A stretch of 64,000 nt of DNA, from NCBI RefSeq assembly GCF_036636695.1, contig NZ_JAVWNW010000008.1; one strand, 5' to 3'. Below the pieces are notes generated by a model that saw only the letters and a list, made by a program, of their open reading frames with translations, was not told where the DNA came from and ran no database searches. The DNA is from Anaerorhabdus sp. (GTDB lineage: Bacteria > Bacillota_I > Bacilli_A > Erysipelotrichales > Erysipelotrichaceae). Shown here piece by piece: positions 5,289-59,626 of the stretch; the first letter of the stretch is position 1; each line of letters begins with the position of its first letter. Made by a program: the position numbers and the translations under genes.

Positions 5289-5299
5289 TCAAAAATTTT

Positions 5300-5336
5300 A
5301 GAGGTGTTAGTTTATGATATTAACACCTCTTCTCTC
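5300..5336 (+). terminator. candidate intrinsic terminator after oppA
   Basis: 10-bp stem agaggtgtta / taacacctct followed by a pyrimidine-rich tract (tctctc). The U-tract is weak. Confidence 0.45.
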
Positions 5337-5349
5337 ATAGGAGGTTAGG

Positions 5350-6540
5350 ATGGAACTCAATAAAGATAAATTACCAATTATTAAAAACGCTTTAAAAGAA
5401 AACGAACTTGATGCGTGGTGTGTATTAGGTCGAGAAACAATTATGAAGAGTGAACCTATTCTTCCTGTATTAGGGGATATGGATTTCATTATCGCTACAG
5501 GATTAATTTTTACTCAAGATAAAATAATTGCGGTTGTAAGTACACTAGATGAAGAAGGCTACAAATTAATTGAAGGTATTGATGAAATTATAACGTACAC
5601 AGGGGATCTTATGGTTCCAGTTGCGAAGAAGATAAAAGAATTAAATCCCAAGAAACTAGGATTGAATTTCTCTAAAAATGATGCGAGTGCTGATGGACTA
5701 ACTTATGGGATGAAGTTAAAACTTGAAAGACAGCTTAAAGAAGTTGGCTTTGAAGGTGAACTTGTAAGTGCAGTTAATTTAATTGCGAAAGTTCGTGGGC
5801 AAAAAACCGCTGAACAAATTAAGAAAATTAAGCATACTGCTGAAGTTGCTTTGAAATATTTAGAAAGTGTTCCAACAATGTTAAAAGATGGAACAACTTC
5901 ATTAGACATATTCAATTATTTACATGAAGTTGCATATAATGATGGATATGGAATGTCTTGGACACCATCACAATGTCCAGGAGTTAGTGTTGATCCAAAT
6001 GTACCTGCAGGACATATGGGAATTATTGAAACACCTATCGTTAAAGGATATGTAATTAATATTGATTATGGTGTATCAAAAGATGGATATTGTAGTGATC
6101 TCCAAAGGATGTATTACATCTTAAAAGATGATGAAGATGATGCACCAGAAGAAGTGAAACGAGCATTCTATACTGTGCGTGATGCAATAAAAATGGCAAA
6201 AGATGCGATGAAACCAGGTGTGACTGGTTATCAAATTGATAAGATTGCAAGAAGCCATGTCGTCAGTGAAGGATATGATTCTTGGAATGCTGCACTTGGA
6301 CATCAAGTGGGACATGAAACACATGATGGAGGATATATCCTTGCAAATCGTCGCCCGCGTTATAACCGACCAGAATTAATTGATCAACCATTAGATGAAG
6401 GAAACGTCTTCACAATAGAGCCTGGTGTTGAAACATCACGTGGACGTATTGGTATTGAAGAAATGGTTGTGATTACAAAAGATGGATGCGAATGGCTAGT
6501 TCCTCCGCAACAAGAATTGATGCTAGTGAGGGTGAAATAA
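5350..6540 (+). CDS. M24 family metallopeptidase (Xaa-Pro aminopeptidase/dipeptidase-like)
   Basis: Pita-bread fold metal ligands are recognisable (DYGV..YCSDLQR, GHQVGHETHD, TIEPG, GIEEMVV). RBS AGGAGG. Confidence 0.8.
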   Translation: MELNKDKLPIIKNALKENELDAWCVLGRETIMKSEPILPVLGDMDFIIATGLIFTQDKIIAVVSTLDEEGYKLIEGIDEIITYTGDLMVPVAKKIKELNPKKLGLNFSKNDASADGLTYGMKLKLERQLKEVGFEGELVSAVNLIAKVRGQKTAEQIKKIKHTAEVALKYLESVPTMLKDGTTSLDIFNYLHEVAYNDGYGMSWTPSQCPGVSVDPNVPAGHMGIIETPIVKGYVINIDYGVSKDGYCSDLQRMYYILKDDEDDAPEEVKRAFYTVRDAIKMAKDAMKPGVTGYQIDKIARSHVVSEGYDSWNAALGHQVGHETHDGGYILANRRPRYNRPELIDQPLDEGNVFTIEPGVETSRGRIGIEEMVVITKDGCEWLVPPQQELMLVRVK

Positions 6541-11034: not shown

Positions 11035-12243
11035 ATGAAAGAGAAAATGATAGAAGCCTTTAAAAAAGCAGAAGGTGGCATGTTTATTGAAGTAGAAAAA
11101 GCAGATGTTGGTAGTTCGTATCAAGAAATGGAAAAACAAGGAGTAGCACTTATGGGATGGGCAGATCCTTTTATGCCAGATAAAAGTTTACCAGTACATG
11201 TTGAAGAAGCACTAATCAATTCAATAAAAGGTGCGTCAGCTGCACATTATACTGCACCTGTAGGTAGTCAAGAATTAAAAGATAAACTTGCCATAAAACT
11301 TGAACAATTCAACAAGTTAAAAGTCGATTCACATCGTAATATTTTGATTACTCCAGGATCAGATTCTGGCTTGTATTTTGCTATTTTACCTTTTATCAAT
11401 GAAGGTGATGAAGTTCTCATACCGACACCAAGTTATCCAAATAATTTCTTGGATATTGAAATCATGGGCGGTAAAGTAGTTCCTGTTCCTTTAAATGAAG
11501 AAGAAGACTATCAATTTAATGAAGATACATTTGAAAAACATGTGACTTCTAAAACAAAGATGATTTTGTTGACTCATCCGAACAATCCAACAACAACCGT
11601 ATTCAACCGTAAATCATTAGAAATACTTGCGAAATGTGCTATCGAACATGATTTAATCTTGGTTTGTGATCAAGCCTTTGAAGATTATTGTTATGAAAAT
11701 GAATTCATTACGCCAGCTGCTTTACCAGGAATGTTTGAAAGAACTGTAACGGTATTTTCATTCTCTAAAGGAATGGGATTGAGTGGGCTGCGAGTTGGCT
11801 ATGTGGTGTGTTCAGATGTAATCATGGATGCTATGTTTGCAAATGCAGTTGCTGTAATTGGTGCTACCAATACTTCTTGTCAACAGGCGGTATTAGCAGC
11901 ATTGAATGATACACGATTTATGAAGGAATTTGAAAGCGCATTTGATTTGAGAAGGCACCGAGCTTTTGAGATATTTAACTCTATTCCCAACGTTAGTATG
12001 AAACTTCCTGAATCAGGTTTCTTATGCTGGGTCAATGTTTCAAAACTAGGTAAATCGAGTGATATAGTTAAATATTTATTGAAAGAAGCTAAGGTTTCGG
12101 TAAATGATGGTGTTAACTATGGTATCGGTGGTGAAGGACATTTAAGAATTGTTTTAGGTGTTTATCGTGATAATTGGAAAATATTTGATATACTAGATAG
12201 GGTTAAAAATGCATTGATGCATTACCAAGATATGAACAACTAA
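11035..12243 (+). CDS. PLP-dependent aminotransferase, class I/II
   Basis: PLP-lysine motif SFSKGMGLSGLRVGY and NPNNPT motif. ATG at 11035 lies downstream of the terminator. Confidence 0.85.
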   Translation: MKEKMIEAFKKAEGGMFIEVEKADVGSSYQEMEKQGVALMGWADPFMPDKSLPVHVEEALINSIKGASAAHYTAPVGSQELKDKLAIKLEQFNKLKVDSHRNILITPGSDSGLYFAILPFINEGDEVLIPTPSYPNNFLDIEIMGGKVVPVPLNEEEDYQFNEDTFEKHVTSKTKMILLTHPNNPTTTVFNRKSLEILAKCAIEHDLILVCDQAFEDYCYENEFITPAALPGMFERTVTVFSFSKGMGLSGLRVGYVVCSDVIMDAMFANAVAVIGATNTSCQQAVLAALNDTRFMKEFESAFDLRRHRAFEIFNSIPNVSMKLPESGFLCWVNVSKLGKSSDIVKYLLKEAKVSVNDGVNYGIGGEGHLRIVLGVYRDNWKIFDILDRVKNALMHYQDMNN

Positions 12244-36427: not shown

Positions 36428-36518
36428 GAAGAAGTACTCAAGAGGCTGAAGAGGTGCCCCTGCTAAGGGTATAGGTCGGGAAACTGGCGCGAGGGTTCAA
36501 ATCCCTCCTTCTTCGCCA
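36428..36518 (+). tRNA. tRNA-Ser (anticodon GCT)
   Basis: Hand-folded cloverleaf. Acceptor gaagaag/cttcttc, anticodon loop ctGCTaa, long variable arm, T-loop ttcaaat, encoded CCA. 91 nt. Confidence 0.9.
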
Positions 36519-36525
36519 TAATATT

Positions 36526-36601
36526 GGTCTGGTGGTGTAGCGGTTAACATGCCTCCCTGTCACGGAGGAGATCGCGGGTTCGATTCCCGTCCAGACCGCC
36601 A
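36526..36601 (+). tRNA. tRNA-Asp (anticodon GTC)
   Basis: Acceptor ggtctgg/ccagacc, anticodon loop ctGTCac, T-arm gcggg-ttcgatt-cccgt, encoded CCA. 76 nt. Confidence 0.9.
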
Positions 36602-37949: not shown

Positions 37950-40900
37950 ATGAAAAAAATCTACGCTATTATCATAGCAATTGCAATGACGATGTCATCA
38001 TCAGCAGTTTATGCAGATGATACACTTGTTTCACGACAAGTAAAAAATCAAGATACAATTGAAATTAATCCATCTGCTCCACCAACAGAGACTCCAAATC
38101 AAGCACAAGCAGAATCAATTAATGAAACTGTATCGCCAACAGAAACACCCATATCGACAATAACTACTGATAAATCAAAAACTGATCTTATTTTTGATAA
38201 TATTCTTAGTTTGAAAGAAAACTATGATATAAAAAGTAAAATAGAAAATGCCATTGATACCAATGGTGTATTGTTAGATGAGGAATCACGTAGAGACTTT
38301 ATTGAACAATTTAGTGATATTCAGGAAAAAATTGATGAAATAATAATAGAAGATCAAACATTCGTAGATGTATGCAATCAAAATACAGATTATCAATTGT
38401 TACATGATTTATATGTAAAGATGCTTGATTACCAAACCCAACTTGATACCAATGTACCAATGCTATTTTCAGAAATTCCTAATCCAAAAGTTACTTATGA
38501 TGCGAATGGTGGAACTGGAAGTGTTCCTGAGGTACAAGATTACACAATTAATACAAGGGTTAATGTGCGTTTTAGTCCGCTTCCTAAGAAGGATTATTAT
38601 GTGTTTTCTGGTTGGTCAAAAACAAAAAAAGCGGTTAATGATTTACCTGATTATGCAACAGGAGGTACAACTAGTTTTACAATTACGGGCGATATAACTT
38701 TATATGCAACATGGAAGAGTGGAACGATTCAAGTCATTAACCAATCAATTAATGGCTTAACTGCAACAACGAAATTTCAAGTTAATTTTGTTGGAGTACC
38801 TACGGGAACAATTCAGTATGGTATTGTCATTAATGGTATCACTTATCCAGCAGATACCGGATCCTTGATAAACAATAGTGGAGTTGGAAGTTATACAGTA
38901 ACTACAACAACTTTAATACCTGGCTCAACAATAACCGCCAATGCAAAGATTGGAAATCAAGTTCTTTCAGATTACCTTTGTACAGTAACAGTGGTATCAT
39001 ATGATCCTTCATCGATTAATTTTAATGGCAGCAATTATACACTTTCGCCAGTATTAGTAGGAACAAAAATGAGTACAGATGAAGGTCAAACTTGGCATTT
39101 ATTTGTAATTAATGAAGTTTCTAGTGGTGTGTATACAATGCCAAATAATTTTTCTGGAAGCTCTATTTGGATTGCCTACTTTGCATCTGATGGAACATTA
39201 CTTAGTTCAATTAGAAAGATAACAATTACTAAAGCGGCTGTTCCAACAGCAACAACAGTTCAACCTATAACTGTAAATGGAACAGGATCAATTAAAAATA
39301 TTTCTAGCAATGCTGAATACAGCACAAATAATGGTACCAGTTGGCAAACAGTAACAGGAGATTTGAATAATCTTGCTCAAGGGACAACGATTTTATTAAG
39401 AACTAAAGGAAGTATAAATACACTACCAAGTGATAATGTTAGTATTACAATTAATCGTATATCACAAATGAATAGTTCAACATATTCAGTTGTTGGATAT
39501 GTGGGGAATTATGATGGAAGTAACCATAATTCAGTGAGTATAACAAGTACAATACAAGGGGCTACTATTTTATATGGAACTAATGCTGGGTCTTTATCAG
39601 CAGTGATTCCACAAATTAAGGATGTAGGGTCAACTACAATTTATTACAGCATTAGTGCTAGTGGATATGAGACGGTGACAGGCTCAGTTGTAACACGGGT
39701 TAATCCAAAAACATTAATGGCAACCTATAGTGGAGAAAGTATTTTCTATGGTGCTTCACCAACACTTCAAGTCAATGTTTCAGGATTTGTAACTGGTGAA
39801 ACAAGTGCAAGTGATCCAACATTTCAATTGCCACGTATTCAAAATACAAATCTAATTCCAGGTAGTTATACACTAACTCCAAGTGGTGGAAATCCTGGGA
39901 AAAACTATGTGTTCAATTATGTATCTGGAACACTAGTGATTAACAAAGGAAATTTAGGAATTACGGTAACAGGATATCAAGGTACTTATGATGGTGGATT
40001 GCATGGTGTTACAATAGCAAACAATGATGCAACACAAATTCTTTATTCCGTAAATAATGGAACAGCTACATCTATAGCACCACAATTCAAAAATGCCGGT
40101 GTGTATTCAGTTAAAGTACAAGCCATTAAAACAAATTATGAGATTAAGGAATTCCTAGTAGAGGTTAATATTAAACAAAAAGATATTACTGTTGAAGTAG
40201 CATCTATAAATAATAAAACATATGATGGAAACACGATAGCAAGTGGAAATTTAATTGTAAAAGGGGTTGTTGGAAATGATTCAGTCAATGCGTTAGGAAC
40301 TTATAATTTTATTGACAAAAATGCTGGAGAATTAAAAAAAGTATTTGTTAATCATATTAGTCTAAATGGCAGTGATGCAGGAAATTATAATTTGACAACA
40401 AGTGAACTAGAAAGTAGTGGAACCATTTATCCAGTTGTGGCATTACTTACATGGTCAGGAACAGATACAAGGACGTATGATGGAATAGCAAGTCAAGTTA
40501 ATGCAACAATTACAAATGCGATAGGTCAAGAAAGTGTAACTGTTACTTTAGAAGGAAATAGTGAAATTGATGCGGGTAGTTATACGGCTACAGCAACACA
40601 GCTTTCAGACACTAACTATACGTTAGAAGGTGCTAATAGTACGGCAGCTTATATCATATCACCACGTCAAGTAACTTATTCATGGAGTAATATCAACACA
40701 AGAGTTTATGATGGAACGCCAAGTCAAGTTAGTGCAGCAATTACAAATCTTGTTCAAAATGATACAGCTTCATTAAGTATTTCTAATGGGAATCAAGTGA
40801 ATGCAGGAATCTATGTAGCAAGCATTTCTGGCATACAAGGTGTAGATGCAGGAAATTATAGTTTGCCAACTGAAGGATTACTAGTTCCATATACAATTAC

Positions 40901-43900
40901 AAGAGCTGTTTTAACGGCAACTGTAAGTGATGAATCAATTATGTATGGATATACACCGCTATCACAAATAGAAGTTACTGGATTTGTAAATCAAGAAGAT
41001 GCTTCAACAGCGAGTGGCTACCAACAACCAATCACAACGATTACAACAATTTCATCAGTTTATCCAAATGTTGGAACATACCATGTTGTATTAAGTGGTG
41101 GAAGTGCCACGAATTATCGATTTTTATATGATGATGGTATGTTAACAATTAATAAAGCTAATTTAACAGTTACATCATCAGGATATGTAGAAATATATGA
41201 TGGCAATGATCATACAATTTCTGTACAAGTTCAAGAAGATGATTCTACCATTATGTATGGATTATCAGTTGGGCAATATGATTTAACGAATGCACCGACG
41301 TTTTCTAATGTAGGGTCTACAACGATTTACTATAAAGTAGAAAATCCAAATTATAACGATGTTTTTGGAAGTGAAATTGTAACAATTCAAAAGAAAACAG
41401 TGACACCAACAGTACTAACAGTAAGTGATAAAATTTATGATGGAAACCAATCTACAACGGGAACACTCGGTTTAATTGGTGTTCTACCAAAAGATGAAGG
41501 AACTGTCACAGTCAGTGGAGTTTTCGCATTTACAAATAAAAATGTTGAAGCTATTAAATACGTTAATGTATCGAAAATTATTTTTGATACTACTGTTCAA
41601 AACTATACTTTGGATTCAAATCAACTTACAAATATACAAACTGATGCTCAAATTAAACCAGTAGAACTTCTCGCAACCTATCACGAAAGTGTAAATTATG
41701 ATGATACAATTCCTACGAGTGTAACAGTTACTGGATTTGTGAACAATGAGAATGAATCAAATGCAGATGGATACAGTGCACCAAGTATAGAAATACCAGG
41801 ATATGATGTGGGCACTTATTCTGTTCTACCAAAAGATGGGCAAGCAACAAATTATACATTTATCTATCAAGCAGGTTATCTAACGATAGTTCCAATTAAT
41901 ATGGTATTTACAACTACAGATTATCAAGGTATTTATGATGCTCAAGAGCACAATGGACATGTCGCAGTAACTATGCCTGATTCAAATATAGAAATAACTT
42001 ATAGCACATCAAAAGATGGTAATTATACTGTAGATGAACCAGTTTACCGTAATGTAGGAAACTATACTTATTGGTATCGAATTCATGATACTGGTGCAGT
42101 GGATGATTATAACGATGTTCAAGGTGTTTTAGCTGTGATGATATCACCACATATTGTGAAAGCTCAAATTGATTCAGTTAGCGACAAAGTATATGATGGC
42201 ACGACAGATACCAGTGGTATGCTTACGTTAGATTACATTGGATCTGGTGATGATTTAGGTGTTCAAGGAGTTATCCGATTCGATGATAAAAATGTTGGGG
42301 ATTCAAAGATAGTTGATGTTACAAATTTAAATTTAACAGGTGATTCAGCTATAAATTATCGATTAGAGGATTCAAGAATTCTTGATGCACTAACAACTAG
42401 TAAAATTACTAAAAAACAAATCACTATTATTTGGTCAAGTCAAAATCAATTTGTTTATCAAGGAATCAATCAAGGTGTTATCGCAATGACAAATGATTTC
42501 TTACCATCAGATGATGTTACGTTAGTTTTAGAGAATAATATGAATACGGATGTAGGAACATATACAGCTAAAATAATAGAACTTCAAGGTGTTGATAATA
42601 TCAACTATCAATTACCAACAAATCTAGAACAAGAATATTCGATTACACCTAAATTATTAACAGTTCGTTATGTTGGTGAGTCAATTGTTTATACGGGAAG
42701 TCCTCATTTTAGAGTAGTTGTCGATGGTTTTGTAGCAAACCAAAATATTAATAATATTAATGGGTTTAGCCTTCCAATAGCATTTTTGGCACAATGGGTA
42801 GCGGGAAGAACATATACCGTAACCCCAACTGGAGGAAATCCGGGTTCAAATTATGCATTTAATTATGTAGGTGATTCTTTGGCGGTTCTTCTGGCAAATA
42901 TGGAAGATGAAGTTAAAGGCGAAGATAGTAAAGTAATGTATGATGGACAACCTCATTCGGTTTCAGTAATAGCTCCAGAGGATGCGACAGTGACAAAACA
43001 GTCATATACAGCTCCAGGAACTTATACAATACAATGGAAAGTTGAAAAGGAGAATTATGAGTCAGTAAGTGGAAGTAATATTTTAATAATCCAACCTAAA
43101 GAAATTGATCCAACACCAACACCAACGCCAATCCCTACTCCAAGTCCAACACCAGTAGCGACGACTCAGCCAAAAACGGATGAAATTGAAGTTCTGTATA
43201 TTGAGGAAGTAGAAAGAGTAAAACAACCATTTAAAAACTATGATAAGAATGATGCAGAAGAAGTCCTAGAAGATGAAAATCCAGCTTATCAAGGAAAATT
43301 TGAGAATGGTAGATTTATGATTATAGGTGAAGACAAAGCAATAGAATTTACCAAAGATATGACAATTCAAATTGGTAATGGATATCTGGTTCTTATGTAT
43401 AGTGATGATTCACTTCGCAATGGTACTGTTTTGAATGTTGAACAGTTTATAAACGCCGTTTTAACACCGACGGAACTTGACGGTGTCATGCAAGGGGACG
43501 AAATAGAAGTTGCAGTTGAAATTCGACAAGGATTAATAAGTTCTTTGGAAAGTGGAGATAAACTAGAAAATCAAGTTAAGAATTTAGGATTTAGTTGTGG
43601 AGGATTCATTTCATTTAAGATTAAAACACGTATAAATGATGGTGAATGGAAAGATCGATTAACGTTTTTGAATAATACTTCATTTGATGTACTTTTACAT
43701 CTACCAAAAGAATGGATAGATAATGATGATTTGTATTTGTGGAGAGTTGAAAATGATACATTAATTAATCAACAAAAAGTTGAAGTTCACAATAATGAAT
43801 TGAAATTAAGTGTTGATGCGTTGGGTGAATATGTAATTACTTATCCACAACAAAATGAAATATTTGAAGAGAGCAATGAAGGACAAAGTATTGTGATTGT

Positions 43901-43961
43901 TATCGTACTTGCGTTGATAGGAGTAGCTGGTTTTATACTTTTGCGAAGAAGAAAAAAATAA
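37950..43961 (+). CDS. giant repeat-rich cell-surface protein (2003 aa), putative adhesin
   Basis: Signal peptide (AVYA/DD), one Listeria-Bacteroides (Flg_new) repeat, and many alternating MBG-type (..YG..P...V.GFV.GE......NY.F.Y..G.L.I) and YDG-type (KTYDG...A.G....GVVG.D.V.......D.NAG......I.L.G.DAGNY.L) modules. Pro/Thr linker DPTPTPTPIPTPSPTP at about 43107-43178. C-terminal TM plus RRRKK tail. No LPXTG. Confidence 0.85.
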   Translation: MKKIYAIIIAIAMTMSSSAVYADDTLVSRQVKNQDTIEINPSAPPTETPNQAQAESINETVSPTETPISTITTDKSKTDLIFDNILSLKENYDIKSKIENAIDTNGVLLDEESRRDFIEQFSDIQEKIDEIIIEDQTFVDVCNQNTDYQLLHDLYVKMLDYQTQLDTNVPMLFSEIPNPKVTYDANGGTGSVPEVQDYTINTRVNVRFSPLPKKDYYVFSGWSKTKKAVNDLPDYATGGTTSFTITGDITLYATWKSGTIQVINQSINGLTATTKFQVNFVGVPTGTIQYGIVINGITYPADTGSLINNSGVGSYTVTTTTLIPGSTITANAKIGNQVLSDYLCTVTVVSYDPSSINFNGSNYTLSPVLVGTKMSTDEGQTWHLFVINEVSSGVYTMPNNFSGSSIWIAYFASDGTLLSSIRKITITKAAVPTATTVQPITVNGTGSIKNISSNAEYSTNNGTSWQTVTGDLNNLAQGTTILLRTKGSINTLPSDNVSITINRISQMNSSTYSVVGYVGNYDGSNHNSVSITSTIQGATILYGTNAGSLSAVIPQIKDVGSTTIYYSISASGYETVTGSVVTRVNPKTLMATYSGESIFYGASPTLQVNVSGFVTGETSASDPTFQLPRIQNTNLIPGSYTLTPSGGNPGKNYVFNYVSGTLVINKGNLGITVTGYQGTYDGGLHGVTIANNDATQILYSVNNGTATSIAPQFKNAGVYSVKVQAIKTNYEIKEFLVEVNIKQKDITVEVASINNKTYDGNTIASGNLIVKGVVGNDSVNALGTYNFIDKNAGELKKVFVNHISLNGSDAGNYNLTTSELESSGTIYPVVALLTWSGTDTRTYDGIASQVNATITNAIGQESVTVTLEGNSEIDAGSYTATATQLSDTNYTLEGANSTAAYIISPRQVTYSWSNINTRVYDGTPSQVSAAITNLVQNDTASLSISNGNQVNAGIYVASISGIQGVDAGNYSLPTEGLLVPYTITRAVLTATVSDESIMYGYTPLSQIEVTGFVNQEDASTASGYQQPITTITTISSVYPNVGTYHVVLSGGSATNYRFLYDDGMLTINKANLTVTSSGYVEIYDGNDHTISVQVQEDDSTIMYGLSVGQYDLTNAPTFSNVGSTTIYYKVENPNYNDVFGSEIVTIQKKTVTPTVLTVSDKIYDGNQSTTGTLGLIGVLPKDEGTVTVSGVFAFTNKNVEAIKYVNVSKIIFDTTVQNYTLDSNQLTNIQTDAQIKPVELLATYHESVNYDDTIPTSVTVTGFVNNENESNADGYSAPSIEIPGYDVGTYSVLPKDGQATNYTFIYQAGYLTIVPINMVFTTTDYQGIYDAQEHNGHVAVTMPDSNIEITYSTSKDGNYTVDEPVYRNVGNYTYWYRIHDTGAVDDYNDVQGVLAVMISPHIVKAQIDSVSDKVYDGTTDTSGMLTLDYIGSGDDLGVQGVIRFDDKNVGDSKIVDVTNLNLTGDSAINYRLEDSRILDALTTSKITKKQITIIWSSQNQFVYQGINQGVIAMTNDFLPSDDVTLVLENNMNTDVGTYTAKIIELQGVDNINYQLPTNLEQEYSITPKLLTVRYVGESIVYTGSPHFRVVVDGFVANQNINNINGFSLPIAFLAQWVAGRTYTVTPTGGNPGSNYAFNYVGDSLAVLLANMEDEVKGEDSKVMYDGQPHSVSVIAPEDATVTKQSYTAPGTYTIQWKVEKENYESVSGSNILIIQPKEIDPTPTPTPIPTPSPTPVATTQPKTDEIEVLYIEEVERVKQPFKNYDKNDAEEVLEDENPAYQGKFENGRFMIIGEDKAIEFTKDMTIQIGNGYLVLMYSDDSLRNGTVLNVEQFINAVLTPTELDGVMQGDEIEVAVEIRQGLISSLESGDKLENQVKNLGFSCGGFISFKIKTRINDGEWKDRLTFLNNTSFDVLLHLPKEWIDNDDLYLWRVENDTLINQQKVEVHNNELKLSVDALGEYVITYPQQNEIFEESNEGQSIVIVIVLALIGVAGFILLRRRKK
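38487..38714 (+). repeat. Listeria-Bacteroides repeat (Flg_new) module within the surface protein
   Basis: KVTYDANGGTGSVP....F.GWS......Y.......ITGDITLYATW consensus pattern. Confidence 0.7.
39475..43106 (+). repeat. array of diverged MBG/YDG-type Ig-like modules (protein-level tandem repeats)
   Basis: At least about 18 recurrences of the YDG or YG..P..(V/L).GFV...... NY.F.Y..G.L.I signatures, read from the translation. The DNA copies are diverged, not identical. Confidence 0.6.
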
Positions 43962-51560: not shown

Positions 51561-51634
51561 GCAGATGTAGTTCAATGGTAGAACGCGACCTTGCCAAGGT
51601 CGACACGGGGGTTCGATTCCCCTCATCTGCTCCA
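51561..51634 (+). tRNA. tRNA-Gly (anticodon GCC)
   Basis: Acceptor gcagatg/catctgc, anticodon arm cgacc-ttGCCaa-ggtcg, T-arm ggggg-ttcgatt-cccct, encoded CCA. 74 nt. Confidence 0.9.
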
Positions 51635-51900
51635 TTAAATAATAAAAAGAAGCTAATTTAGCTTTTTTTTATTGTTTTTAAAAAAGTGCCATATAGTTGA
51701 AATAAATATATCTTATTTAAGTAAGTGATTATTAATTATCTAGTTAATCATCTAGGTAAATGTTAAAATCTTTATTTGTTAGTAATAGAAACTCTTTAAA
51801 TGAATATTTAAAGAAATTAAGTACAAATAATAGAAATTTTATTTGTTTATAACCAGCATATAACCAAAATAGTTCATACTGTAACCATGATGAGGTGACA

Positions 51901-52431
51901 ATGATGAAAAAATTATTACTAAGTTTATTATTGGTTCTAGGGCTAACACTTGTAACAGTATCTGTTTCTGCTCAAGATGATATAAATAATGATACAACTG
52001 AAATTAAAGAAGAAACTACTCCTGAAGCAAATCGTAAACCTTCAGGAAATAATACGATTATCCAATTTGGTGCATTTGCATTATTTGTTGTAATCGTTGG
52101 TGTAGGAGTAACAATGTACAATCGCCGTGGTGTATTTCATATTAGTGATACACAAATGAATGGTGATGGAAGTTATACACTTACAGTTCGCAGTAATAGC
52201 ATTAAAAAAATGATGAATAATCCAGATGATGTTCATGTAATTATTCGAAAAGGTACGTGCATATTTTTGAAGAAACCTGATTTTTCCAAACGCCTAACAA
52301 GAAAAGATGATTTATTTATCGTAGTTGTTAATGAAAATAGTCAAATTGAGTTTATGTATAAAGATGATACATTCATGATTGATGGTGGCAATTTAGGTAA
52401 ATCTCTGAAATTAAAAAATAGCACTATTTAG
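51901..52431 (+). CDS. bitopic membrane protein of unknown function (signal peptide, short ectodomain, TM, ~100-aa cytoplasmic domain)
   Basis: ATG at 51901 follows GAGGTGA. Signal peptide VSVSA/QDD. Second TM is FGAFALFVVIVGVGVTMY. No family recognised. Confidence 0.5.
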   Translation: MMKKLLLSLLLVLGLTLVTVSVSAQDDINNDTTEIKEETTPEANRKPSGNNTIIQFGAFALFVVIVGVGVTMYNRRGVFHISDTQMNGDGSYTLTVRSNSIKKMMNNPDDVHVIIRKGTCIFLKKPDFSKRLTRKDDLFIVVVNENSQIEFMYKDDTFMIDGGNLGKSLKLKNSTI

Positions 52432-52475: not shown

Positions 52476-53378
52476 ATGAAGTTTTTATTGAGTTTATTAT
52501 GCATTACATTGTTACTTGTTGGCTGTAGTGCTACAGGTAGTAACTCTAAATATCCAGTGATAGAACAAGTTGGGAATGAAATTACACCAACTTTTGATAT
52601 GATTAAAATACCGGATGCATCTGGTGTTTTAATTGCAAGCGATAATCTTGTTGAAATAGATTATTCAAATACGAATTTAGGATATATCATGGTTAAGACA
52701 AAAAGTTCTGATCATGAGAAACTGAAAATACAAATAATAAAAGGTGAAGAAAAATATACATATGATATTGCAGTGGACGATAAGTTTATTAGCTACCCGT
52801 TAAATATGAGTGATGGTGATTATACCATCAAAGTATTAGAAAATGTAGGTGGCGATAATTACGCATTAAAGTTAAGTAAAAGTATAAATGTGACTTTAGA
52901 TAATGAAAACTATCCCTTTCTATATCCTAGCTATATTGTGAATTATGATATTGAAACAAAGGCCATAGCTAAATCTTTTGAAATTTGTGAAGGAGCTACA
53001 TCAGACCTTGAAAGAGTTTATCTAATTTACGAATGGATAACAAATAATATTGAATATGATTGGAAAAAAGTTGAAGAAGTACAAGACAAGTTTGTTGTTC
53101 CAATTGTTGACGAAACATTATCGCTAAAGTCAGGTATTTGTTTCGATTATGCAGCACTCATGAGTTGTATGTTAAGAGTTCAACAAATACCAACGAAATT
53201 ACGAACAGGTTATGTTGAATTAGGCTACCATGCGTGGGTAGAAGTCTACATAGAAGATGTAGGATGGGTTGATCCGAATGTTTACTTTAAATCTGATGAG
53301 TGGACAAGAATGGATCCAACTTTCGAAGCATCAGGCGAAAATTATAATGGCAATTATGAAAATAAATACCAATACTAA
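52476..53378 (+). CDS. transglutaminase-like (cysteine-protease fold) lipoprotein
   Basis: Lipobox LLVGC. Transglutaminase core triad context GICFDYAAL (Cys), YHAWVEVY (His), MDPT (Asp). ATG at 52476 follows AGGTGATA. Confidence 0.8.
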   Translation: MKFLLSLLCITLLLVGCSATGSNSKYPVIEQVGNEITPTFDMIKIPDASGVLIASDNLVEIDYSNTNLGYIMVKTKSSDHEKLKIQIIKGEEKYTYDIAVDDKFISYPLNMSDGDYTIKVLENVGGDNYALKLSKSINVTLDNENYPFLYPSYIVNYDIETKAIAKSFEICEGATSDLERVYLIYEWITNNIEYDWKKVEEVQDKFVVPIVDETLSLKSGICFDYAALMSCMLRVQQIPTKLRTGYVELGYHAWVEVYIEDVGWVDPNVYFKSDEWTRMDPTFEASGENYNGNYENKYQY

Positions 53379-53391
53379 AGGGGGCTTAACA

Positions 53392-54423
53392 ATGATTAAG
53401 ATTACTGAAACTGTATTGCTTTGTGATCAACTTCATATGATTCTTGAATCTGGTTTGACATTGGAAACAGGAATTGATGCGATTCTTGAAGAACTAAGTG
53501 ACAAAGAAACAAAAGAAGCTTTAACTTCAATACAAGACTCATTACAAGAAAATATGAGTTTTGCTAAGGCTTGTGAGAAAACAGGTGCTTTTGATGCTTA
53601 TTTTATACAAATGGTAAAAATTGGAGAAGAAACAGGTTATTTGGATAATGTGCTAAAACAGTTATCAATTTACTATAACCGATTGGACTCAATGAATAAA
53701 AAAATTAAGGATGCAATTTTCTATCCAAGTCTTTTGTTTGTGATGATGCTTGTGCTTATGGGAATTCTTGTTGTGAAAGTACTCCCAATATTTAGAAATG
53801 TATTGAATAGTATGGGTACTGATATTTCTTCGCTAGCCTTAGTGCTTATGAATATTGGTCAGAAGATTTCTGAATTTGGATTTGCAATATTAGTTGTTAT
53901 AGCACTTGCAGTGGTAATTGTACTTCTTACCTATCGAATTAAGTACAAAGAAAGAGCGACTTCAATGTTGTTATCGAATTTTATCTTCACTAAATCATTG
54001 ATGCGTGATATCGAAGTAAGCAAAGTTGCGTATGCATTAAGTTTGTTTATGAATAGTGGGTTAGATTTAGCTAATGCATTTGAACTTCTTCCAGGACTTG
54101 TTGATAATAGAAAAATTAGAGAACGAATTGAATTATGTAATAAAGAGATTGAAGATGGCAAATCAGCATTAGATGCTTTAATTGATGCAAAAATATTTAA
54201 ATCGGTTTATACACGAATTTTAAAGATTGCTCAAAAGTCAGGTAAACTAGATGATACCATGTCAAAAGTTGCAAAAGATTATGAGAATGAAATGAGTAGT
54301 TCAATTAATCGTTTCTTAAATATTATAGAACCCACAATTATGATTAGCTGCGTTATTATTGTAGGAATAATTCTATTATCAGTAATGCTTCCATTGATGA
54401 GCATTATGACGAGTCTAGGATGA
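53392..54423 (+). CDS. type II secretion system F-family (GspF/PilC/ComGB-like) platform protein
   Basis: Two T2SSF repeats (LESGLTLETGIDAI...VKIGEETGYLD and MNSGLDLANAFELL...LKIAQKSGKLD) and three TM segments. 343 aa. ATG at 53392 follows AAAGGGGG. Confidence 0.8.
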   Translation: MIKITETVLLCDQLHMILESGLTLETGIDAILEELSDKETKEALTSIQDSLQENMSFAKACEKTGAFDAYFIQMVKIGEETGYLDNVLKQLSIYYNRLDSMNKKIKDAIFYPSLLFVMMLVLMGILVVKVLPIFRNVLNSMGTDISSLALVLMNIGQKISEFGFAILVVIALAVVIVLLTYRIKYKERATSMLLSNFIFTKSLMRDIEVSKVAYALSLFMNSGLDLANAFELLPGLVDNRKIRERIELCNKEIEDGKSALDALIDAKIFKSVYTRILKIAQKSGKLDDTMSKVAKDYENEMSSSINRFLNIIEPTIMISCVIIVGIILLSVMLPLMSIMTSLG

Positions 54424-54725
54424 TTAAGTTCATAAAAAAACATAGTCGACTGTTCACAATACTCTTATTACTTTTGTTGGTGGGAGGGCTTGTGATATCA
54501 CTCGATTCTATCCAAGAGCGTTTGGATAAAGAAGGTGAAAAACGACTATACAATGCTATTCAAAAGGCAGCTATTACTTGTTATAGCGTTGAAGGAAGAT
54601 ATCCAGCTTCATTAGAATATCTTGTTGAAAATTATGGTGTTATTGTAGATAGCAATAAATATCACGTGTATTACGAAACATTCGGATCAAATGTACAACC
54701 AGAAATTAAGATATATCAAAGGTAG
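54420..54725 (+). CDS. small N-terminally anchored protein 1, pseudopilin-like (101 aa)
   Basis: ATGA overlap with the platform gene. N-terminus MIKFIKKHSRLFTILLLLLLVGGLVISL. Globular part contains EGRYPASLEYLVENYG, reminiscent of the G.YP.sL..L motif of GspG/ComGC-type major pseudopilins. Confidence 0.5.
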   Translation: MIKFIKKHSRLFTILLLLLLVGGLVISLDSIQERLDKEGEKRLYNAIQKAAITCYSVEGRYPASLEYLVENYGVIVDSNKYHVYYETFGSNVQPEIKIYQR

Positions 54726-54730
54726 AGAAA

Positions 54731-55174
54731 ATGAAAAATTCTAAAATCGCAGAAGTATTATGGACACTGGTTCTACTTACAGCATTTGTTGTAGGTTCTT
54801 TTGCACTTTTACTTTTGGGAGCGAATTACTATCAAACAATGACAAATAAAACATCTCAAGCAAGAGAACTTCAGTTACCTATATCTTATATTGCAACAAC
54901 AATAAGACAAGCAAATAAGGATCAAGTTACACTTGAAGAAAAAGAAGGTATTGAATGTTTAGTGATTACATATGATAATCATAAACGCATTATTTATTTA
55001 TATGATGGTGAATTGAGAGAGTTGTTTGTATCTGATAATGCGACATATACATTGAATGATGGTACAAAAATTGCAGAAATCGATAGTTTAGAAATGGATT
55101 TAAAACAAAATGAATTAATTTACAAAGTGAATGTTGATGACACAGACTTTGAAATGAAAGTTGTAATGAGGTAG
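54731..55174 (+). CDS. small N-terminally anchored protein 2, minor-pseudopilin-like (147 aa)
   Basis: N-terminus MKNSKIAEVLWTLVLLTAFVVGSFALLLLG. The central IIYLYDGELRELF resembles the v.Y....g.L.R motif of GspJ/ComGF-type minor pilins. Confidence 0.45.
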   Translation: MKNSKIAEVLWTLVLLTAFVVGSFALLLLGANYYQTMTNKTSQARELQLPISYIATTIRQANKDQVTLEEKEGIECLVITYDNHKRIIYLYDGELRELFVSDNATYTLNDGTKIAEIDSLEMDLKQNELIYKVNVDDTDFEMKVVMR

Positions 55175-55177
55175 TGA

Positions 55178-55552
55178 ATGAAAGTAGAACGTAAATCAAA
55201 ATTCTATGTTTTCTTAATGGAATACTTATGGTCCATTCTTTTCTTCGTACTTGCATGTATTGTTTGTGTGCAATTATTTGTGGAAAGTTACAGAATATCT
55301 AATTTAGCAAGTGATAAGAATGAAGCCTTACTCATAGGACAAGTCATTGCAGAAGATTTAAGAATGAATGCTATTGATGAGGCAGATGGTTTCATATTGA
55401 TAGAAGAAAATCATTACCAAAAAAATACGGATAAATTTGTGATTGATATTTATCAAACTCCTAAAGCACTAGACTATGTTGAAAGTACAATTGAGGTTTC
55501 AAAGGGTCATACCGTGCTTATCAACTTTACTGTGATGTCAGGAGGTCAATAA
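55178..55552 (+). CDS. small N-terminally anchored protein 3 (124 aa)
   Basis: N-terminus MKVERKSKFYVFLMEYLWSILFFVLACIV. 3-nt gap from the previous gene. RBS GAGG. Confidence 0.45.
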   Translation: MKVERKSKFYVFLMEYLWSILFFVLACIVCVQLFVESYRISNLASDKNEALLIGQVIAEDLRMNAIDEADGFILIEENHYQKNTDKFVIDIYQTPKALDYVESTIEVSKGHTVLINFTVMSGGQ

Positions 55553-55554
55553 AG

Positions 55555-55992
55555 ATGGAAAAAATTAAAAATATTGGATTTTCTATTGGATACACTTCTT
55601 TGATTATGATTTTTGTGATTTTGGTATTTGTCTCATTCTCAGCGCTTAGTTATACTCAGGCAAATAATGATTTGAGTCGTATCAACAAAGCCATTGATGT
55701 AATTGATGAAAATTATCAAGCAGATACAACTGCAATGCAGGTGAAAATGGCAATCGATGAGATGGTAGTAAATGGTTTTACACCAGAAGAAATCGAAAAT
55801 ACCCTCAAAAGCGAAGTAAATGGTATAATTGTTAACCAAAATAGTGCGAATTATATTATAATAATCAGTAGTAAAGCATATTTAAATGTAGAACTAGGCT
55901 TAGATTTTGAACAAAAAACAATTACTGTTAAATCTTGGGTAGTTGAGAATACTAGCACTGATGAATATAACCTAAAGGGTTTTGACTTATAG
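55555..55992 (+). CDS. small N-terminally anchored protein 4 (145 aa)
   Basis: N-terminus MEKIKNIG-FSIGYTSLIMIFVILVFVSF. Gly-Phe junction resembles a prepilin cleavage site, but Tyr replaces Glu at +5. RBS AGGAGG. Confidence 0.45.
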   Translation: MEKIKNIGFSIGYTSLIMIFVILVFVSFSALSYTQANNDLSRINKAIDVIDENYQADTTAMQVKMAIDEMVVNGFTPEEIENTLKSEVNGIIVNQNSANYIIIISSKAYLNVELGLDFEQKTITVKSWVVENTSTDEYNLKGFDL

Positions 55993-56002
55993 TGGAGGCA
56001 CA

Positions 56003-57067
56003 ATGACGATCTTAGAAATCTTAACAAAGGCAGTTGAGCTTGAATCTTCAGATATATTTCTAATTACAGGTAGCCCTGTAACTTTTAAATGTAATGGGAG
56101 TTTGGATAAATTAGATGAAAGTCCTCTTCTTCCTCATGATACAGAAACACTAGTTAATGAAATTTATGAGTTGAAGAAGGGTAAAACAAAAGAACAATTA
56201 GAAAAAAATGGGGATGATGATTTTTCATTTTCCATTTCTGGATTAGGTAGATTTCGTGTGAATATCTATTATCAACGGGGTTCATTATCAGCAGTATTGC
56301 GTGTTGTGAAACCTGAACTTCCAGATTATAAAGAATTGATGTTACCAGAAGCAGTAATCAACTTGTCTAAACAACTAAAGGGTCTTGTTTTAGTGACGGG
56401 TAGTGCAGGTAATGGTAAATCGACAACACTTGCTTGTATTATTGATCGTATAAATACTTCAAGAAAATCCCATATCATTACAATTGAAGATCCAATTGAG
56501 TTTCTACATCGGCATAAAAAGTCAATTGTGACACAACGAGAAATTGAGAATGATGTAATTGATTATACCCATGCCTTGAAAGCAACACTTCGCCAAGCAC
56601 CGGATGTTATTTTTGTTGGTGAAATGCGTGATTATGAGACAATTAAGACAGTATTGTCTGCAGCTGAAACAGGACATTTAGTATTTTCCACATTACATAC
56701 ATTAGGAGCTGCTGAAACGATTGATCGTATCATCGATGTATTTCCTTCAGCTCAACAACATCAAATTAAAGTTCAATTATCAATGGTTCTACAAGCTGTA
56801 GTGTCACAACTATTAATTCCAACCATAGATAATAAACTTGTACCAGCTTTTGAAATTTTAATTGTGAATAACGCAATTCGTACTCAAATTAGAGATGGTA
56901 AAACATATCAAATTGATAATTATATTGCATCTGGAAAACAAGATGGCATGATTACCATGGATGATTCTATATTTAGTTTGTATAAAGAAGGGAAAATTTC
57001 CAAAGAGAATGCTTTACTCTATGCAGTAAATTCTGAATTGATGGAGAAAAAGATAGGAAAAGCATGA
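56003..57067 (+). CDS. pilT: PilT-family type IV filament ATPase
   Basis: Collinear with PilT as I remember it. Walker A GSAGNGKSTT, Asp box ITIEDPIEF, Walker B VIFVGEMRD, His box GHLVFSTLHT. NAIRTQIRDGK corresponds to the PilT-specific AIRNLIRE motif. 354 aa. ATG at 56003 follows GGAGG. Confidence 0.9.
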   Translation: MTILEILTKAVELESSDIFLITGSPVTFKCNGSLDKLDESPLLPHDTETLVNEIYELKKGKTKEQLEKNGDDDFSFSISGLGRFRVNIYYQRGSLSAVLRVVKPELPDYKELMLPEAVINLSKQLKGLVLVTGSAGNGKSTTLACIIDRINTSRKSHIITIEDPIEFLHRHKKSIVTQREIENDVIDYTHALKATLRQAPDVIFVGEMRDYETIKTVLSAAETGHLVFSTLHTLGAAETIDRIIDVFPSAQQHQIKVQLSMVLQAVVSQLLIPTIDNKLVPAFEILIVNNAIRTQIRDGKTYQIDNYIASGKQDGMITMDDSIFSLYKEGKISKENALLYAVNSELMEKKIGKA

Positions 57068-58248
57068 TGAAAGAAATAAACTTCAAGATGTTTGGACGAT
57101 TCTACTTAAATTATGATAATCGTCAATATGATGTATCTGAAATGTTGGGAAGACAGCTATCTAGTTTGGTAGCGTATTTTGTGTATTACAGAAATCGTAT
57201 AGTTTCAAAAGACATGTTGATAAGTGCGTTTTGGCCAGAAAGTGAAAACCCTAATAGCGCTATTAAATATGCCATATTTCGACTTCGAAATGAATTAGCG
57301 AAAACATTTGATTTTGATTGGATTATTACTTCAAAAATGGGATATATGTTAAACCCTGAACTTGATGTAGTTGTTGATTTAGATAAATTTGAAGATAATT
57401 ATTCAAAACTTCTAGCAGATAAAAATTTCAGCGATTTGAAGTTTTTGGATGAAATGACAGGTGAATTCCTTGAAGAATTTGATGATGAATGGATACTGTC
57501 AATTCGTGAATATTTCAGTGAATCTAAAAATAAAGCTATTGTGACAATTTGTGATGAAGAATTTAGAAAAGGTTCACCAAATTATGCAGAGATTATACAA
57601 GTGTGTAAAGCGGCTTTAGAAATAAATCAATATTCAGAGTCATTAATTTATTTTTATTGTAGATCGCTTATCGAAACACGCGATTATAATAAAGCTTTAA
57701 CTTATTTTGAAAAAACCAAAAGAAAATTTCAGGATGAACTTGGAATTCCTTTATCCGATAATATTCGTGAGTTATTTACAGGTGCTGAATCGGAAGTTGG
57801 AAAAACTGTAAGAATTGATGAGATATCAAAAGATTTTGAAGAAGATTCATTAGCGAATGGTCCATTATTTTGTTCACAATTAACATTTAAAAAGTTATAT
57901 CAAATCTATGTGCGTAAGGCACGTCGTGATAACTCGAATTATCATATTCTGTTATTTGAGATTAAAAGTTTGAAAGCAAATAAACAAGATTATTTACACG
58001 AAGCTCTTGAAAACATTCTTGTTGAAAGTCTTCGACGTACAGATATCTATACAAGTTTTACAACTAATAATTTTGGTATTTTGGTTGAGGTAAAGCAATC
58101 AGAAGATATCTTTGTTGTTATTGAGCGCATTCAAAAGAAGTTCTATGCGAAAGTTAATAGTAAGGTTGCTCGTTTGCTATATCATGAACGTTCTCTAAAT
58201 AAAGTTGAAGATGCAAATCACTTTCCTACAATTGATCAAAAACAGTAA
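57064..58248 (+). CDS. SARP-type (winged-helix + BTAD) regulator with C-terminal degenerate GGDEF-like domain
   Basis: N-terminus FKMFGRFYL...LVAYFVYYRNRIVSKDMLISAFWPE....AIKYAIFRLRNEL fits the SARP/AfsR DNA-binding pattern. A helical BTAD-like middle region follows. The C-terminal HILLFEIK....LRRTDIYTSFTTNNFGILV aligns by eye to the GGDEF fold with TTNNF in place of GGDEF. ATGA overlap with pilT. Confidence 0.6.
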   Translation: MMKEINFKMFGRFYLNYDNRQYDVSEMLGRQLSSLVAYFVYYRNRIVSKDMLISAFWPESENPNSAIKYAIFRLRNELAKTFDFDWIITSKMGYMLNPELDVVVDLDKFEDNYSKLLADKNFSDLKFLDEMTGEFLEEFDDEWILSIREYFSESKNKAIVTICDEEFRKGSPNYAEIIQVCKAALEINQYSESLIYFYCRSLIETRDYNKALTYFEKTKRKFQDELGIPLSDNIRELFTGAESEVGKTVRIDEISKDFEEDSLANGPLFCSQLTFKKLYQIYVRKARRDNSNYHILLFEIKSLKANKQDYLHEALENILVESLRRTDIYTSFTTNNFGILVEVKQSEDIFVVIERIQKKFYAKVNSKVARLLYHERSLNKVEDANHFPTIDQKQ

Positions 58249-58281: not shown

Positions 58282-58339
58282 ATTGTCTAGACAAAAAGAA
58301 GGCAAAGAATGTTGTATAATAGATGCTAGGAGAAGGATT

Positions 58340-59626
58340 ATGAAAAGAGCTATTGTTTTGTCAGGTGGAGGAACAAAAGGAGCTTATGAAGCTGGTTTTG
58401 TTCGCGCACTTAAAGAATTGAATTTATCGTTTGATATTGTTACTGGAACCTCAATAGGTGCTTTAAACGGTGCATTACTAGTTCAACATGATGAAGATAG
58501 ATTAATTGATTTATGGGATAACATGACGATGACAAGAATTCTAAAAGATGAATTGCCTGCGAATTTTAATATTGATGAATTTTTGAAAGAATCAAATCGT
58601 GTTAAATCATTTTTTAAGAAATATGTAAAAGAAAAAGGGGCCGATATAACACCGCTTAAGGAACTAATTCATGAATATTACAATGAACAAAAATTTATGG
58701 ACTCTAAAATTGATTTCGGGTTAGTTACAGTTGAATTTCCAAACTTGAAATATCATTACGTTACTAAAGAAACCATGCAAGATGGTTGTGGTGAAACGTA
58801 CTTACTTGCAAGTGCTTCTTGTTTTCCTGCTTTTCCTAAATGTGAGTTTAAAGATTTAAACTTTATTGATGGTGGTTATTATGATAATTTACCGATTGAG
58901 CTTGCAATTCAATTAGGTGCTCAAGAAATTATTGCAGTAGATTTAAATGATACGCCAAACCATCCACAATTTGTGAATAAACCAAACATTCATTATATTT
59001 TGCCAAGTTTTTCACTTGGTAGTTTTTTGAACTTTGATAAAAATCAAATTGATAATAATATTACTTTAGGATATTATGATACGATGAAATCATTTGGTAA
59101 GTTAGATGGTTTAAGATATACATTTAAGAAAGTTGATAAATATCCTGATTTCTTTAATTTATTTTATTATCAATTGTTGATTTATGATCATAAACTTGGA
59201 AAACAGTTATTAATAAGTGCTGATAATGCCGTTACTTCTAAACTATATAGAATGACGTATAAAGGATATTTGACCTTAGAAGAAATTAATTTTGCAATCA
59301 TGGATTATATTATGATGATGTTTAATATGAATGCATATCAGCTATATGATTTAGATGAAACAGTATTATCAATCCAAGATTTCTTTGCGGATGCTTTCAA
59401 AGAAGATTATGAATTACTACCTGACTTACATGTGAAGGAAATTATGAAAGCAATTCAAACATTAGATAAAAAAGAAATGATTATGAAGTTTGTGCATTAT
59501 CTTTGCTACCCTAGAAAAGGTAAGTTACCATGGAGCTTAATACTGAATGTATTTAGTTTTGAGGTTGCGATGGCATTATGGATTGTTGCTAGTAAAGGTA
59601 TACATTGTCGATGGGAGGAACTATGA
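58340..59626 (+). CDS. patatin-like phospholipase with extended C-terminal domain
   Basis: GGGTKG oxyanion motif, GTSIG nucleophile, DGG catalytic Asp. ATG at 58340 follows AGGAGAAGG. About 200 extra C-terminal residues of unknown fold. Confidence 0.85.
   Translation: MKRAIVLSGGGTKGAYEAGFVRALKELNLSFDIVTGTSIGALNGALLVQHDEDRLIDLWDNMTMTRILKDELPANFNIDEFLKESNRVKSFFKKYVKEKGADITPLKELIHEYYNEQKFMDSKIDFGLVTVEFPNLKYHYVTKETMQDGCGETYLLASASCFPAFPKCEFKDLNFIDGGYYDNLPIELAIQLGAQEIIAVDLNDTPNHPQFVNKPNIHYILPSFSLGSFLNFDKNQIDNNITLGYYDTMKSFGKLDGLRYTFKKVDKYPDFFNLFYYQLLIYDHKLGKQLLISADNAVTSKLYRMTYKGYLTLEEINFAIMDYIMMMFNMNAYQLYDLDETVLSIQDFFADAFKEDYELLPDLHVKEIMKAIQTLDKKEMIMKFVHYLCYPRKGKLPWSLILNVFSFEVAMALWIVASKGIHCRWEEL

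Follow-up and report, generated by a model that had tools for sequence, protein, structure and literature searches.

Four probable pilin-like proteins without the canonical prepilin peptidase site, encoded in a conserved type IV filament-like cassette of single-membrane Firmicutes

The defining feature of type IV filament machines is that a dedicated peptidase cuts their subunits after a conserved glycine, and subunits left uncut are not known to leave the membrane. What, then, are four small membrane proteins that are encoded between a filament platform protein and an ATPase and do not carry the canonical cleavage site? The question is raised by a 64,000-nucleotide stretch of Anaerorhabdus sp. 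(Erysipelotrichaceae; NCBI RefSeq assembly GCF_036636695.1, contig NZ_JAVWNW010000008.1; the whole stretch is called the window below), where P1 (101 amino acids, 54420..54725), P2 (147 amino acids, 54731..55174), P3 (124 amino acids, 55178..55552) and P4 (145 amino acids, 55555..55992) form part of a tight same-strand gene cluster on the plus strand. They are flanked by the genes for a two-domain T2SSF platform protein (53392..54423) and for a T2SSE-family ATPase (56003..57067). We consider it fairly probable that P1-P4 are pilin-like subunits of a self-contained, apparently uncharacterised machine of the type IV filament kind in single-membrane Firmicutes. The first-pass annotation of the window had already read all four as pilin-like; this reading is supported by their position between platform and ATPase, by the fold of P2 and by the helix start of P3, while for P1 no significant match to a pilin was obtained.

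Both machine-level components of a type IV filament system are encoded in the cassette, namely a hexameric ATPase of the T2SSE family and a polytopic T2SSF platform protein. The platform, an inner-membrane protein of the GspF/PilC/ComGB type, matches PF00482 in two stretches (9.6e-45) and scores best against GspF (203 bits), followed by PilC (154 bits) and ComGB (127 bits, cut-off 240), all below the family cut-offs. The ATPase, the only one of the cassette, matches PF00437 (8.3e-43) and scores 422 bits against the PilT/PilU model TIGR01420 (cut-off 319) and 134 bits against ComGA (cut-off 300). It aligns over its full length with Aquifex PilT (2gsz, residues 2-349, 1.8e-103), with PilB and GspE matching the core only (~1e-22), and it keeps the AIRxxIR motif, the 2gsz alignment including 'nnairtqirdgk'. 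Judged by its sequence, the cassette ATPase is a true PilT-type enzyme.

The cassette was recovered in 91 further loci from Clostridia and Erysipelotrichia, with the conserved order transglutaminase-fold lipoprotein, T2SSF platform, P1, P2, P3, P4 and PilT-type ATPase, usually accompanied by a BTAD/SARP regulator. The same four genes, in the same order and with the same kind of N-terminus, were present in all 91 wherever the contig was long enough, including Pseudobutyrivibrio ruminis, Anaerorhabdus and many gut and rumen metagenome contigs. A word-indexed search with P2 returned four close relatives only, and an exhaustive search with the same protein returned 922 representative clusters of its family, DUF4860, at E<=1e-3; contigs around ten diverse DUF4860 proteins showed the identical order, with a P1 equivalent of 101-119 amino acids; P. 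ruminis is the source of one of them. A metagenome scan with the P1 alignment added 80 loci, again with the same neighbours wherever the contig was long enough. A genome scan with the platform protein gave one near-identical locus only, and a search with a concatenated P1, P3 and P4 alignment found nothing.

Each of the four proteins begins with a short basic leader followed by a hydrophobic helix, and these N-termini, together with two internal motifs, proved to be exactly as first described. None of the proteins combines Gly(-1) with Glu(+5), in the window or across the families. The suspicion that true starts elsewhere might reveal a canonical G/FxxxE site was ruled out: upstream of each of the four start codons a stop is reached before any other possible start, which makes extension to a hidden site impossible. 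The ATG of P1 overlaps the stop codon of the platform gene (ATGA), and P2-P4 have ribosome-binding sites of the GAGG/AGGAGG type. In public Anaerorhabdus records P1 is annotated as a 77-residue protein from an internal GTG, losing the family-conserved basic leader and membrane helix; P2 is listed as 'DUF4860 domain-containing', P3 and P4 as 'hypothetical', the ATPase as 'PilT' and the platform as 'type II secretion system F family protein'. For the orthologues, starts were called automatically, in agreement with gene callers in 33 of 36 checks. Across ~899 kb (the window plus the 91 loci) the canonical prepilin pattern, scanned as [polar]-G-[FMLIVY]-[TSA]-x-x-E..., was absent; a control locus of E. 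coli yielded GspG, GspH, GspI and GspJ. As the non-canonical N-termini occur across the orthologues, they are a property of the family and not a peculiarity of this genome.

The pilin-like reading of P2 is well supported. The protein belongs to DUF4860 (PF16152; 1.7e-17, 63.6 bits, gathering cut-off 25), and its AlphaFold2 model, built from 149 sequences with a mean predicted local distance difference test score (pLDDT) of 95.5, consists of a helix (residues 3-60) followed by eight strands. When this model was searched with Foldseek against the PDB, the pseudopilins XcpW (5bw0_C, 3nje) and EpsJ (2ret, 3cfi) came first, at a probability of 0.98-1.00 and a TM-score of 0.45-0.54 over 146-160 columns, and a Thermus type IV-like pilin ranked next; the best match was 5bw0_C (E 0.026, probability 1.00, TM-score 0.54). 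The designation of P2 as GspJ/ComGF-like thus agrees with a confident model of a long alpha-1 helix plus beta domain and with GspJ proteins as best matches, and we regard it as well supported by the predicted structure that DUF4860 has the fold of a GspJ-type minor pseudopilin. At the sequence level P2 matched DUF4860 only; its profile search of the PDB was empty, and hhalign gave the P2 family a probability of 6% against E. coli GspJ, in a suggestive register that sets P2 Glu8 against Glu+5 of GspJ. Glu8 stands at the start of the hydrophobic helix, and Gly is absent at -1. The N-terminal consensus of P2 and DUF4860 is a basic leader followed by H-S-I-[DE]-x-L-F, with an acidic residue in that column in 99 of 149 DUF4860 representatives and Gly(-1) in 8 of 147. 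Among the recovered loci the acidic residue occurs in 41 of 51 distinct P2 N-termini and Gly(-1) in 2 of the 39 that are readable.

For P3 a pilin-like nature is reasonably supported. Its helix starts V-F-L-M-E15-Y, and the family pattern [KR]-[IL]-F-L-T-E-L-M resembles the N-terminus of a mature pilin. E15 lies in an invariant column, an acidic residue being found at the helix start in all 52 distinct N-termini, where the residue at -1 is Arg in 22, Phe in 9, Ser in 5, Lys in 4, Tyr in 4 and Gly in a single case. Three of 11 P3 orthologues matched the NCBIfam model of ComGE, at best with 1.4e-4 over 66 residues and 21.9 bits, below the 49-bit cut-off. One orthologue gave weak matches to XpsI and ComGG, and the sub-threshold ComGE and XpsI matches span 66-74 residues. 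The P3 family profile produced weak matches to Thermus pilins in the PDB, in which profile position 13 falls on pilin residue 3 and E15 would thereby occupy +5. Comparison of the families with E. coli GspI by hhalign was not significant.

In P4 a Gly directly precedes a hydrophobic stretch of 17 residues, and there is no Glu at +5. This much of the Gly/Phe site proposed in the first-pass annotation stands; the position has to be shifted, since the family-conserved Gly aligns with G12 (SIG/YTS) and not with G8/F9. Gly before the hydrophobic stretch is found in all 46 distinct N-termini of the family, with mostly Thr at +1 and always a hydrophobic residue at +5. The same pattern, with Gly kept and no Glu, is seen in E. 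coli GspK (RG/VALLIVL), and the P4 N-terminus likewise resembles GspK/ComGG. Family and profile searches with P4 gave no match, and its reading as pilin-like draws on gene context and topology.

P1 is read as pilin-like on the same grounds of context and topology. It is a bitopic protein: a cytoplasmic leader, basic and with a [KR]-F motif, is followed by a plain hydrophobic helix without Glu and by a tiny, highly conserved head. Its AlphaFold2 model (34 sequences, pLDDT 91.4) shows helices at 2-58 and 65-71 and strands at 81-86 and 95-100 that form a hairpin, in a pilin-like 'lollipop' topology of helix plus hairpin. Foldseek returned nothing significant, with pilins only at E ~4-7 through the long helix. 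The invariant columns of the family are C54, Y55, E58, G59, Y61, P62, Y67, L68, Y72, G73, Y85, N91 and P94. The motif EGRYPASLEYL, on which P1 had been called GspG/ComGC-like, is indeed invariant within the family, but no profile, family or fold search tied P1 significantly to GspG or ComGC; hhalign against E. coli GspG was not significant, and its suggestive register ('CYSVE-GRYPA' against 'MYKLDNHHYPT') lies at noise level. The N-termini of the family have no conserved Gly, and only 3 of 55 show an acidic residue within the first 12 positions of the helix. Leader length ranges over 2-25 residues; the sequence reads 'M.KTRFGSLDGIH' in the Lachnospiraceae clade and 'MIKF' in the window, and [KR]-F is present in 35 of 55 cases, a conservation that would be unexpected if the leader were merely cut off. 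P1 may be either the repeating subunit or a membrane or membrane-proximal adaptor. Comparison of the P families with each other by hhalign detected no relationship.

Several observations weigh against P1-P4 being filament subunits. At the sequence level no significant link of any of them to a curated pilin family emerged: no pilin model of Pfam or NCBIfam was matched above its cut-off, and PDB sequence and profile searches with P1-P4 were empty or at noise level. Among the structural comparisons, P1 has no significant match, and the E-values of P2 in Foldseek are marginal (0.026-0.09). Three of the four proteins (P1-P3) lack the defining Gly(-1), and we know of no system in which uncleaved prepilins assemble. 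PilT-type ATPases are known as retraction motors and not as the sole motors of assembly, and we are aware of no filament, cargo or phenotype for this cassette.

In a rival reading P1-P4 are not filament subunits at all but bitopic membrane proteins for assembly or alignment, which couple platform and ATPase to the outside in the role of PilN/PilO or GspL/GspM. Leaders of P1-P3 that a prepilin peptidase could not cleave, the conserved [KR]-F of P1, as expected of a cytoplasmic tail binding a cytoplasmic partner, and the lack of any pilin match for P1 and P4 would all suit such a role. However, the fold of P2 matches GspJ pseudopilins and not the ferredoxin-like domains of PilO and GspM, P3 has the FLxE helix start of pilins together with its similarity to ComGE and XpsI, and P4 keeps Gly at the cleavage position. 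Furthermore, the number, sizes and gene position of the four proteins fit the ComGC-GG and GspG-K sets. On balance we judge this alternative to be unlikely and retain the view of P1-P4 as pilin-like subunits.

How, then, would their leaders be handled? Prepilin peptidases of family A24 act on the cytoplasmic membrane face and need Gly at -1, rarely Ala or Ser. Neither tblastn with E. coli GspO nor a scan for the GxGD[VI]K motif found an A24 peptidase in the 64-kb window or the 91 loci. Gly(-1) is missing from P1-P3 across their families, so these three are probably not substrates of a prepilin peptidase and would retain their basic leaders. P4, with its family-invariant Gly before the helix, is by its sequence compatible with cleavage and could still be a substrate. 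In Butyrivibrio proteoclasticus, a rumen relative, prepilin peptidases are encoded at a different pilus locus (PMC2914790), which makes it plausible that a shared enzyme encoded elsewhere acts on P4.

Alternatively, all four proteins might be processed by a protease outside family A24, for which the transglutaminase-fold cysteine enzyme encoded as the first conserved gene of the cassette (52476..53378, plus strand) had been suggested as a candidate. This enzyme matches PF01841 (3.5e-21, 75.9 bits, cut-off 23) with an intact Cys-His-Asp motif set, its motifs GICFDYA...YHAW...DP are kept in 54 loci, and its nearest solved structure is a 'putative cysteine protease' (3isr, 1.6e-07). Its constant position as first gene, its intact catalytic residues, the absence of an A24 peptidase in or near any cassette and a possible recognition site before the P3 helix, where Arg or Lys is most frequent (26 of 52), argue for such processing. 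Nevertheless, the lipobox (LLLVGC) of the protein, a lipoprotein in most loci, puts it on the outer face of the membrane, where it would be badly placed to cut leaders that are expected to be cytoplasmic; it is therefore an unlikely leader protease. Moreover, no leader position of P1 or P2 is conserved enough to resemble a cleavage site, and the cassette holds no other conserved protease gene. Processing of all four by a different protease thus appears very improbable.

We give as little credit to the proposal that P1-P4 are ordinary substrates of a prepilin peptidase of relaxed specificity, encoded elsewhere and tolerating Lys, Arg, Tyr or Asn at -1. It conflicts with the known requirement of A24 peptidases at this position, with the rarity of Gly(-1) in P3, in P2 from the recovered loci and among the DUF4860 representatives, and with P1, which has neither Gly nor Glu. 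In its favour, P4 has a proper Gly site, P2 and P3 keep an acidic residue at the position aligned with Glu+5, a prepilin peptidase often serves several systems and is encoded away from them (PMC6668835), and the related B. proteoclasticus possesses such enzymes (PMC2914790). Finally, we find it scarcely credible that the odd N-termini reflect misplaced start codons or decay of the locus, in spite of the internal GTG start in public P1 records and of an insertion sequence and a split transglutaminase gene in one human-gut lineage, as none of the four frames can be extended upstream, the starts have ribosome-binding sites or a stop-start overlap, leaders and helices are kept among proteins of just 20-35% identity and the models are confident through the N-terminal helix.

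Under the reading that we prefer, with P1-P4 as pilin-like subunits, P2, P3 and P4 would make up a counterpart of the J-I-K tip (or initiation) complex known from type II secretion and Com pseudopili. P4, which keeps Gly and lacks Glu, would cap this complex, and P3 and P2, with their Glu or Asp, would lie docked below, an arrangement like that of the GspK-I-J tip. P4 would be cut by a prepilin peptidase encoded elsewhere, from which P1-P3 would escape with their basic leaders in place. What the platform and the PilT-type hexamer might then drive through the wall is a short pseudopilus or piston anchored in the membrane; as P1-P3 would keep their charged leaders, such a tethered structure is likelier than an extended free filament. 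For the conserved cytoplasmic [KR]-F tail of P1, a contact with the motor or the platform is conceivable, and the lipoprotein enzyme, extracellular by virtue of its lipobox, may open, remodel or cross-link the wall or cross-link the subunits. More tentatively, and as a possibility that we rate below even chances, the cassette might represent a distinct type IV filament-like class in which most subunits work without processing by a prepilin peptidase, a leader-bearing and membrane-tethered GspI-J-K-like tip complex sits on a GspF/PilC-type platform, a PilT-type ATPase is the sole driver and an extracellular transglutaminase-fold enzyme is paired with the machine; such a class would be widespread among Firmicutes of the gut and rumen, and current detection models would miss it.

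Among known systems the cassette shares with the Com pseudopilus a single-membrane host, an operon with one ATPase, one two-domain platform protein and four or five small pilin-like proteins, the lack of a secretin and of PilMNO, and a peptidase outside the operon (in Com the separately encoded ComC). P3 orthologues weakly match the ComGE model, and the size of P1 is close to that of ComGC. However, the cassette ATPase is of the PilT type instead of ComGA and is encoded at the 3' end, the subunits lack G/FxxxE, and a transglutaminase-fold lipoprotein and a BTAD regulator are included. The scores against ComGA, ComGB and ComGE (at most 21.9 against 49) all stayed below the cut-offs, and ComGC, ComGD and ComGF were not matched. 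With the GspH-I-J-K tip of type II secretion (XcpU-V-W-X, EpsH-K) it has in common the GspJ-type fold of P2, the weak likeness of P3 to GspI/XpsI, the Gly-1 without Glu+5 of P4, as in GspK, and a platform that scores best against GspF. It differs in lacking a secretin, GspC, GspL, GspM and GspE, in the missing Gly-1 of P2 and P3, in a P2 that is ~50 residues shorter than E. coli GspJ, and in its single-membrane host and the absence of evident cargo.

The full-length PilT homologue with AIRxxIR, scoring above the PilT/PilU cut-off, recalls the retraction module of type IVa pili (PilT with PilC), but the cassette has no PilB-type extension ATPase, no recognisable major pilin, no PilD and no PilMNO, so that PilT is its sole motor. 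Tad/Flp and archaeal type IV pili likewise have short hydrophobic subunits in which an acidic residue lies close to the helix start, but they use Gly (in archaea also Ala or Ser) at -1 and a dedicated peptidase (TadV, PibD or FlaK). In Tad systems the platform is split into TadB and TadC, whereas here it is a single two-domain protein, next to an ATPase of the PilT type. Searches for TadE, Flp and Pilin_N gave no significant family match, one archaeal Pilin_N match reaching 0.058 and one Tad match 1.6. Tad systems resemble the cassette in that one ATPase can suffice for the whole machine (PMC6668835).

The regulator gene (57064..58248, plus strand), whose start overlaps the stop codon of the ATPase gene, encodes a SARP/BTAD-type transcription regulator with Trans_reg_C and BTAD domains and a sub-threshold match to GGDEF (0.011); this GGDEF-like C-terminal part is probably degenerate. 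A BTAD gene lies beside the cassette in 28 loci, either upstream or downstream. In one locus (L007) an HD-GYP-type gene (4359-5471) is found directly upstream of the cassette and a GGDEF gene (11511-12197) downstream, and the BTAD genes of L003 and L006 also show faint GGDEF similarity. Taken together, these domain assignments hint at a control of the cassette by cyclic di-GMP. The BTAD gene is followed by small 'NA(S/T)WQG' proteins in L003 (7151-7570), L005 (5361-5825, 7037-7222) and L008 (1470-1895, 1994-2170), which occur in a form of 139-154 amino acids and a form of 58-61 amino acids and match no known family.

Variation in the composition of the cassette was also recorded. In L067, L091 and L092 the transglutaminase gene, the platform gene and P1-P4 are present and no PilT-type gene was found within ~7 kb downstream. 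About 15 human-gut contigs (L013-L028) all break ~100 nucleotides upstream of P1, and in L028 (2442-7339) the platform gene is separated from P1 by the remnant of an IS110-like transposase, and the transglutaminase gene is broken into two parts; in this one lineage the copy appears to be decaying. Homologous secreted, acidic coiled-coil surface proteins of 1058-1152 amino acids adjoin the cassette in L007 (13082-16339), L008 (2304-5480) and L011 (1981-5439); at the C-terminus they carry an anchor of the form '(D/E)EVPLAA ... WWW helix ... KK', and they match the 'doubled motif LPXTG anchor' model below threshold. They were considered as dedicated cargo and rejected, being present in few loci and looking like sortase-type anchored proteins.

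Upstream of the cassette in the window lies a gene for a 178-residue protein (51895..52431, plus strand) with a signal peptide, one further membrane helix and a C-terminal domain of ~100 amino acids, which matched no family in domain and family scans. It is the first gene after a transfer RNA (tRNA) gene and is kept in the close relatives L001 and L002. As a conserved member of the cassette it was rejected, because the small proteins that take its place in distant loci show no homology to it; it is at most a possible component of the system. The tRNA genes of this region are located at 51561-51631, which adjoins the cassette upstream, and at 36428-36515 and 36526-36598; the first probably marks the start of the transcription unit. 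Apart from these tRNAs no riboswitch or other RNA was found upstream of the cassette, and a scan for promoters and terminators was uninformative, promoter-like sites being no commoner than at the shuffled level. Approximately 8 kb upstream of the cassette, a 2003-residue protein (37950-43961) with a signal peptide, a C-terminal membrane helix and a basic tail is probably a surface protein. A secreted glucosaminidase-domain protein (PF01832, 50772-51431) is encoded upstream of the cassette and an open reading frame with patatin-like GxGxxG and GxSxG motifs, as read from the letters, downstream (58283-59626); neither is kept beside the cassette in distant loci.

Literature searches with DUF4860, PF16152 and transglutaminase plus type IV filament found no paper on the cassette, which apparently has not been described before. 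In a large survey of the superfamily not even the 'generic' class dispenses with a recognisable pilin (PMC6668835), so that the cassette would have been missed. The conserved cassette keeps the platform, the motor and pilin-like folds, yet three of its four subunits have lost the glycine and its only motor is of the retraction type. Thus, it makes testable whether leader cleavage is obligatory for such machines, what a PilT-type ATPase does alone and which role is played by DUF4860, with its 922 clusters. Moreover, many gut Lachnospiraceae and Erysipelotrichaceae would carry a surface machine that annotation and survey tools apparently overlook.

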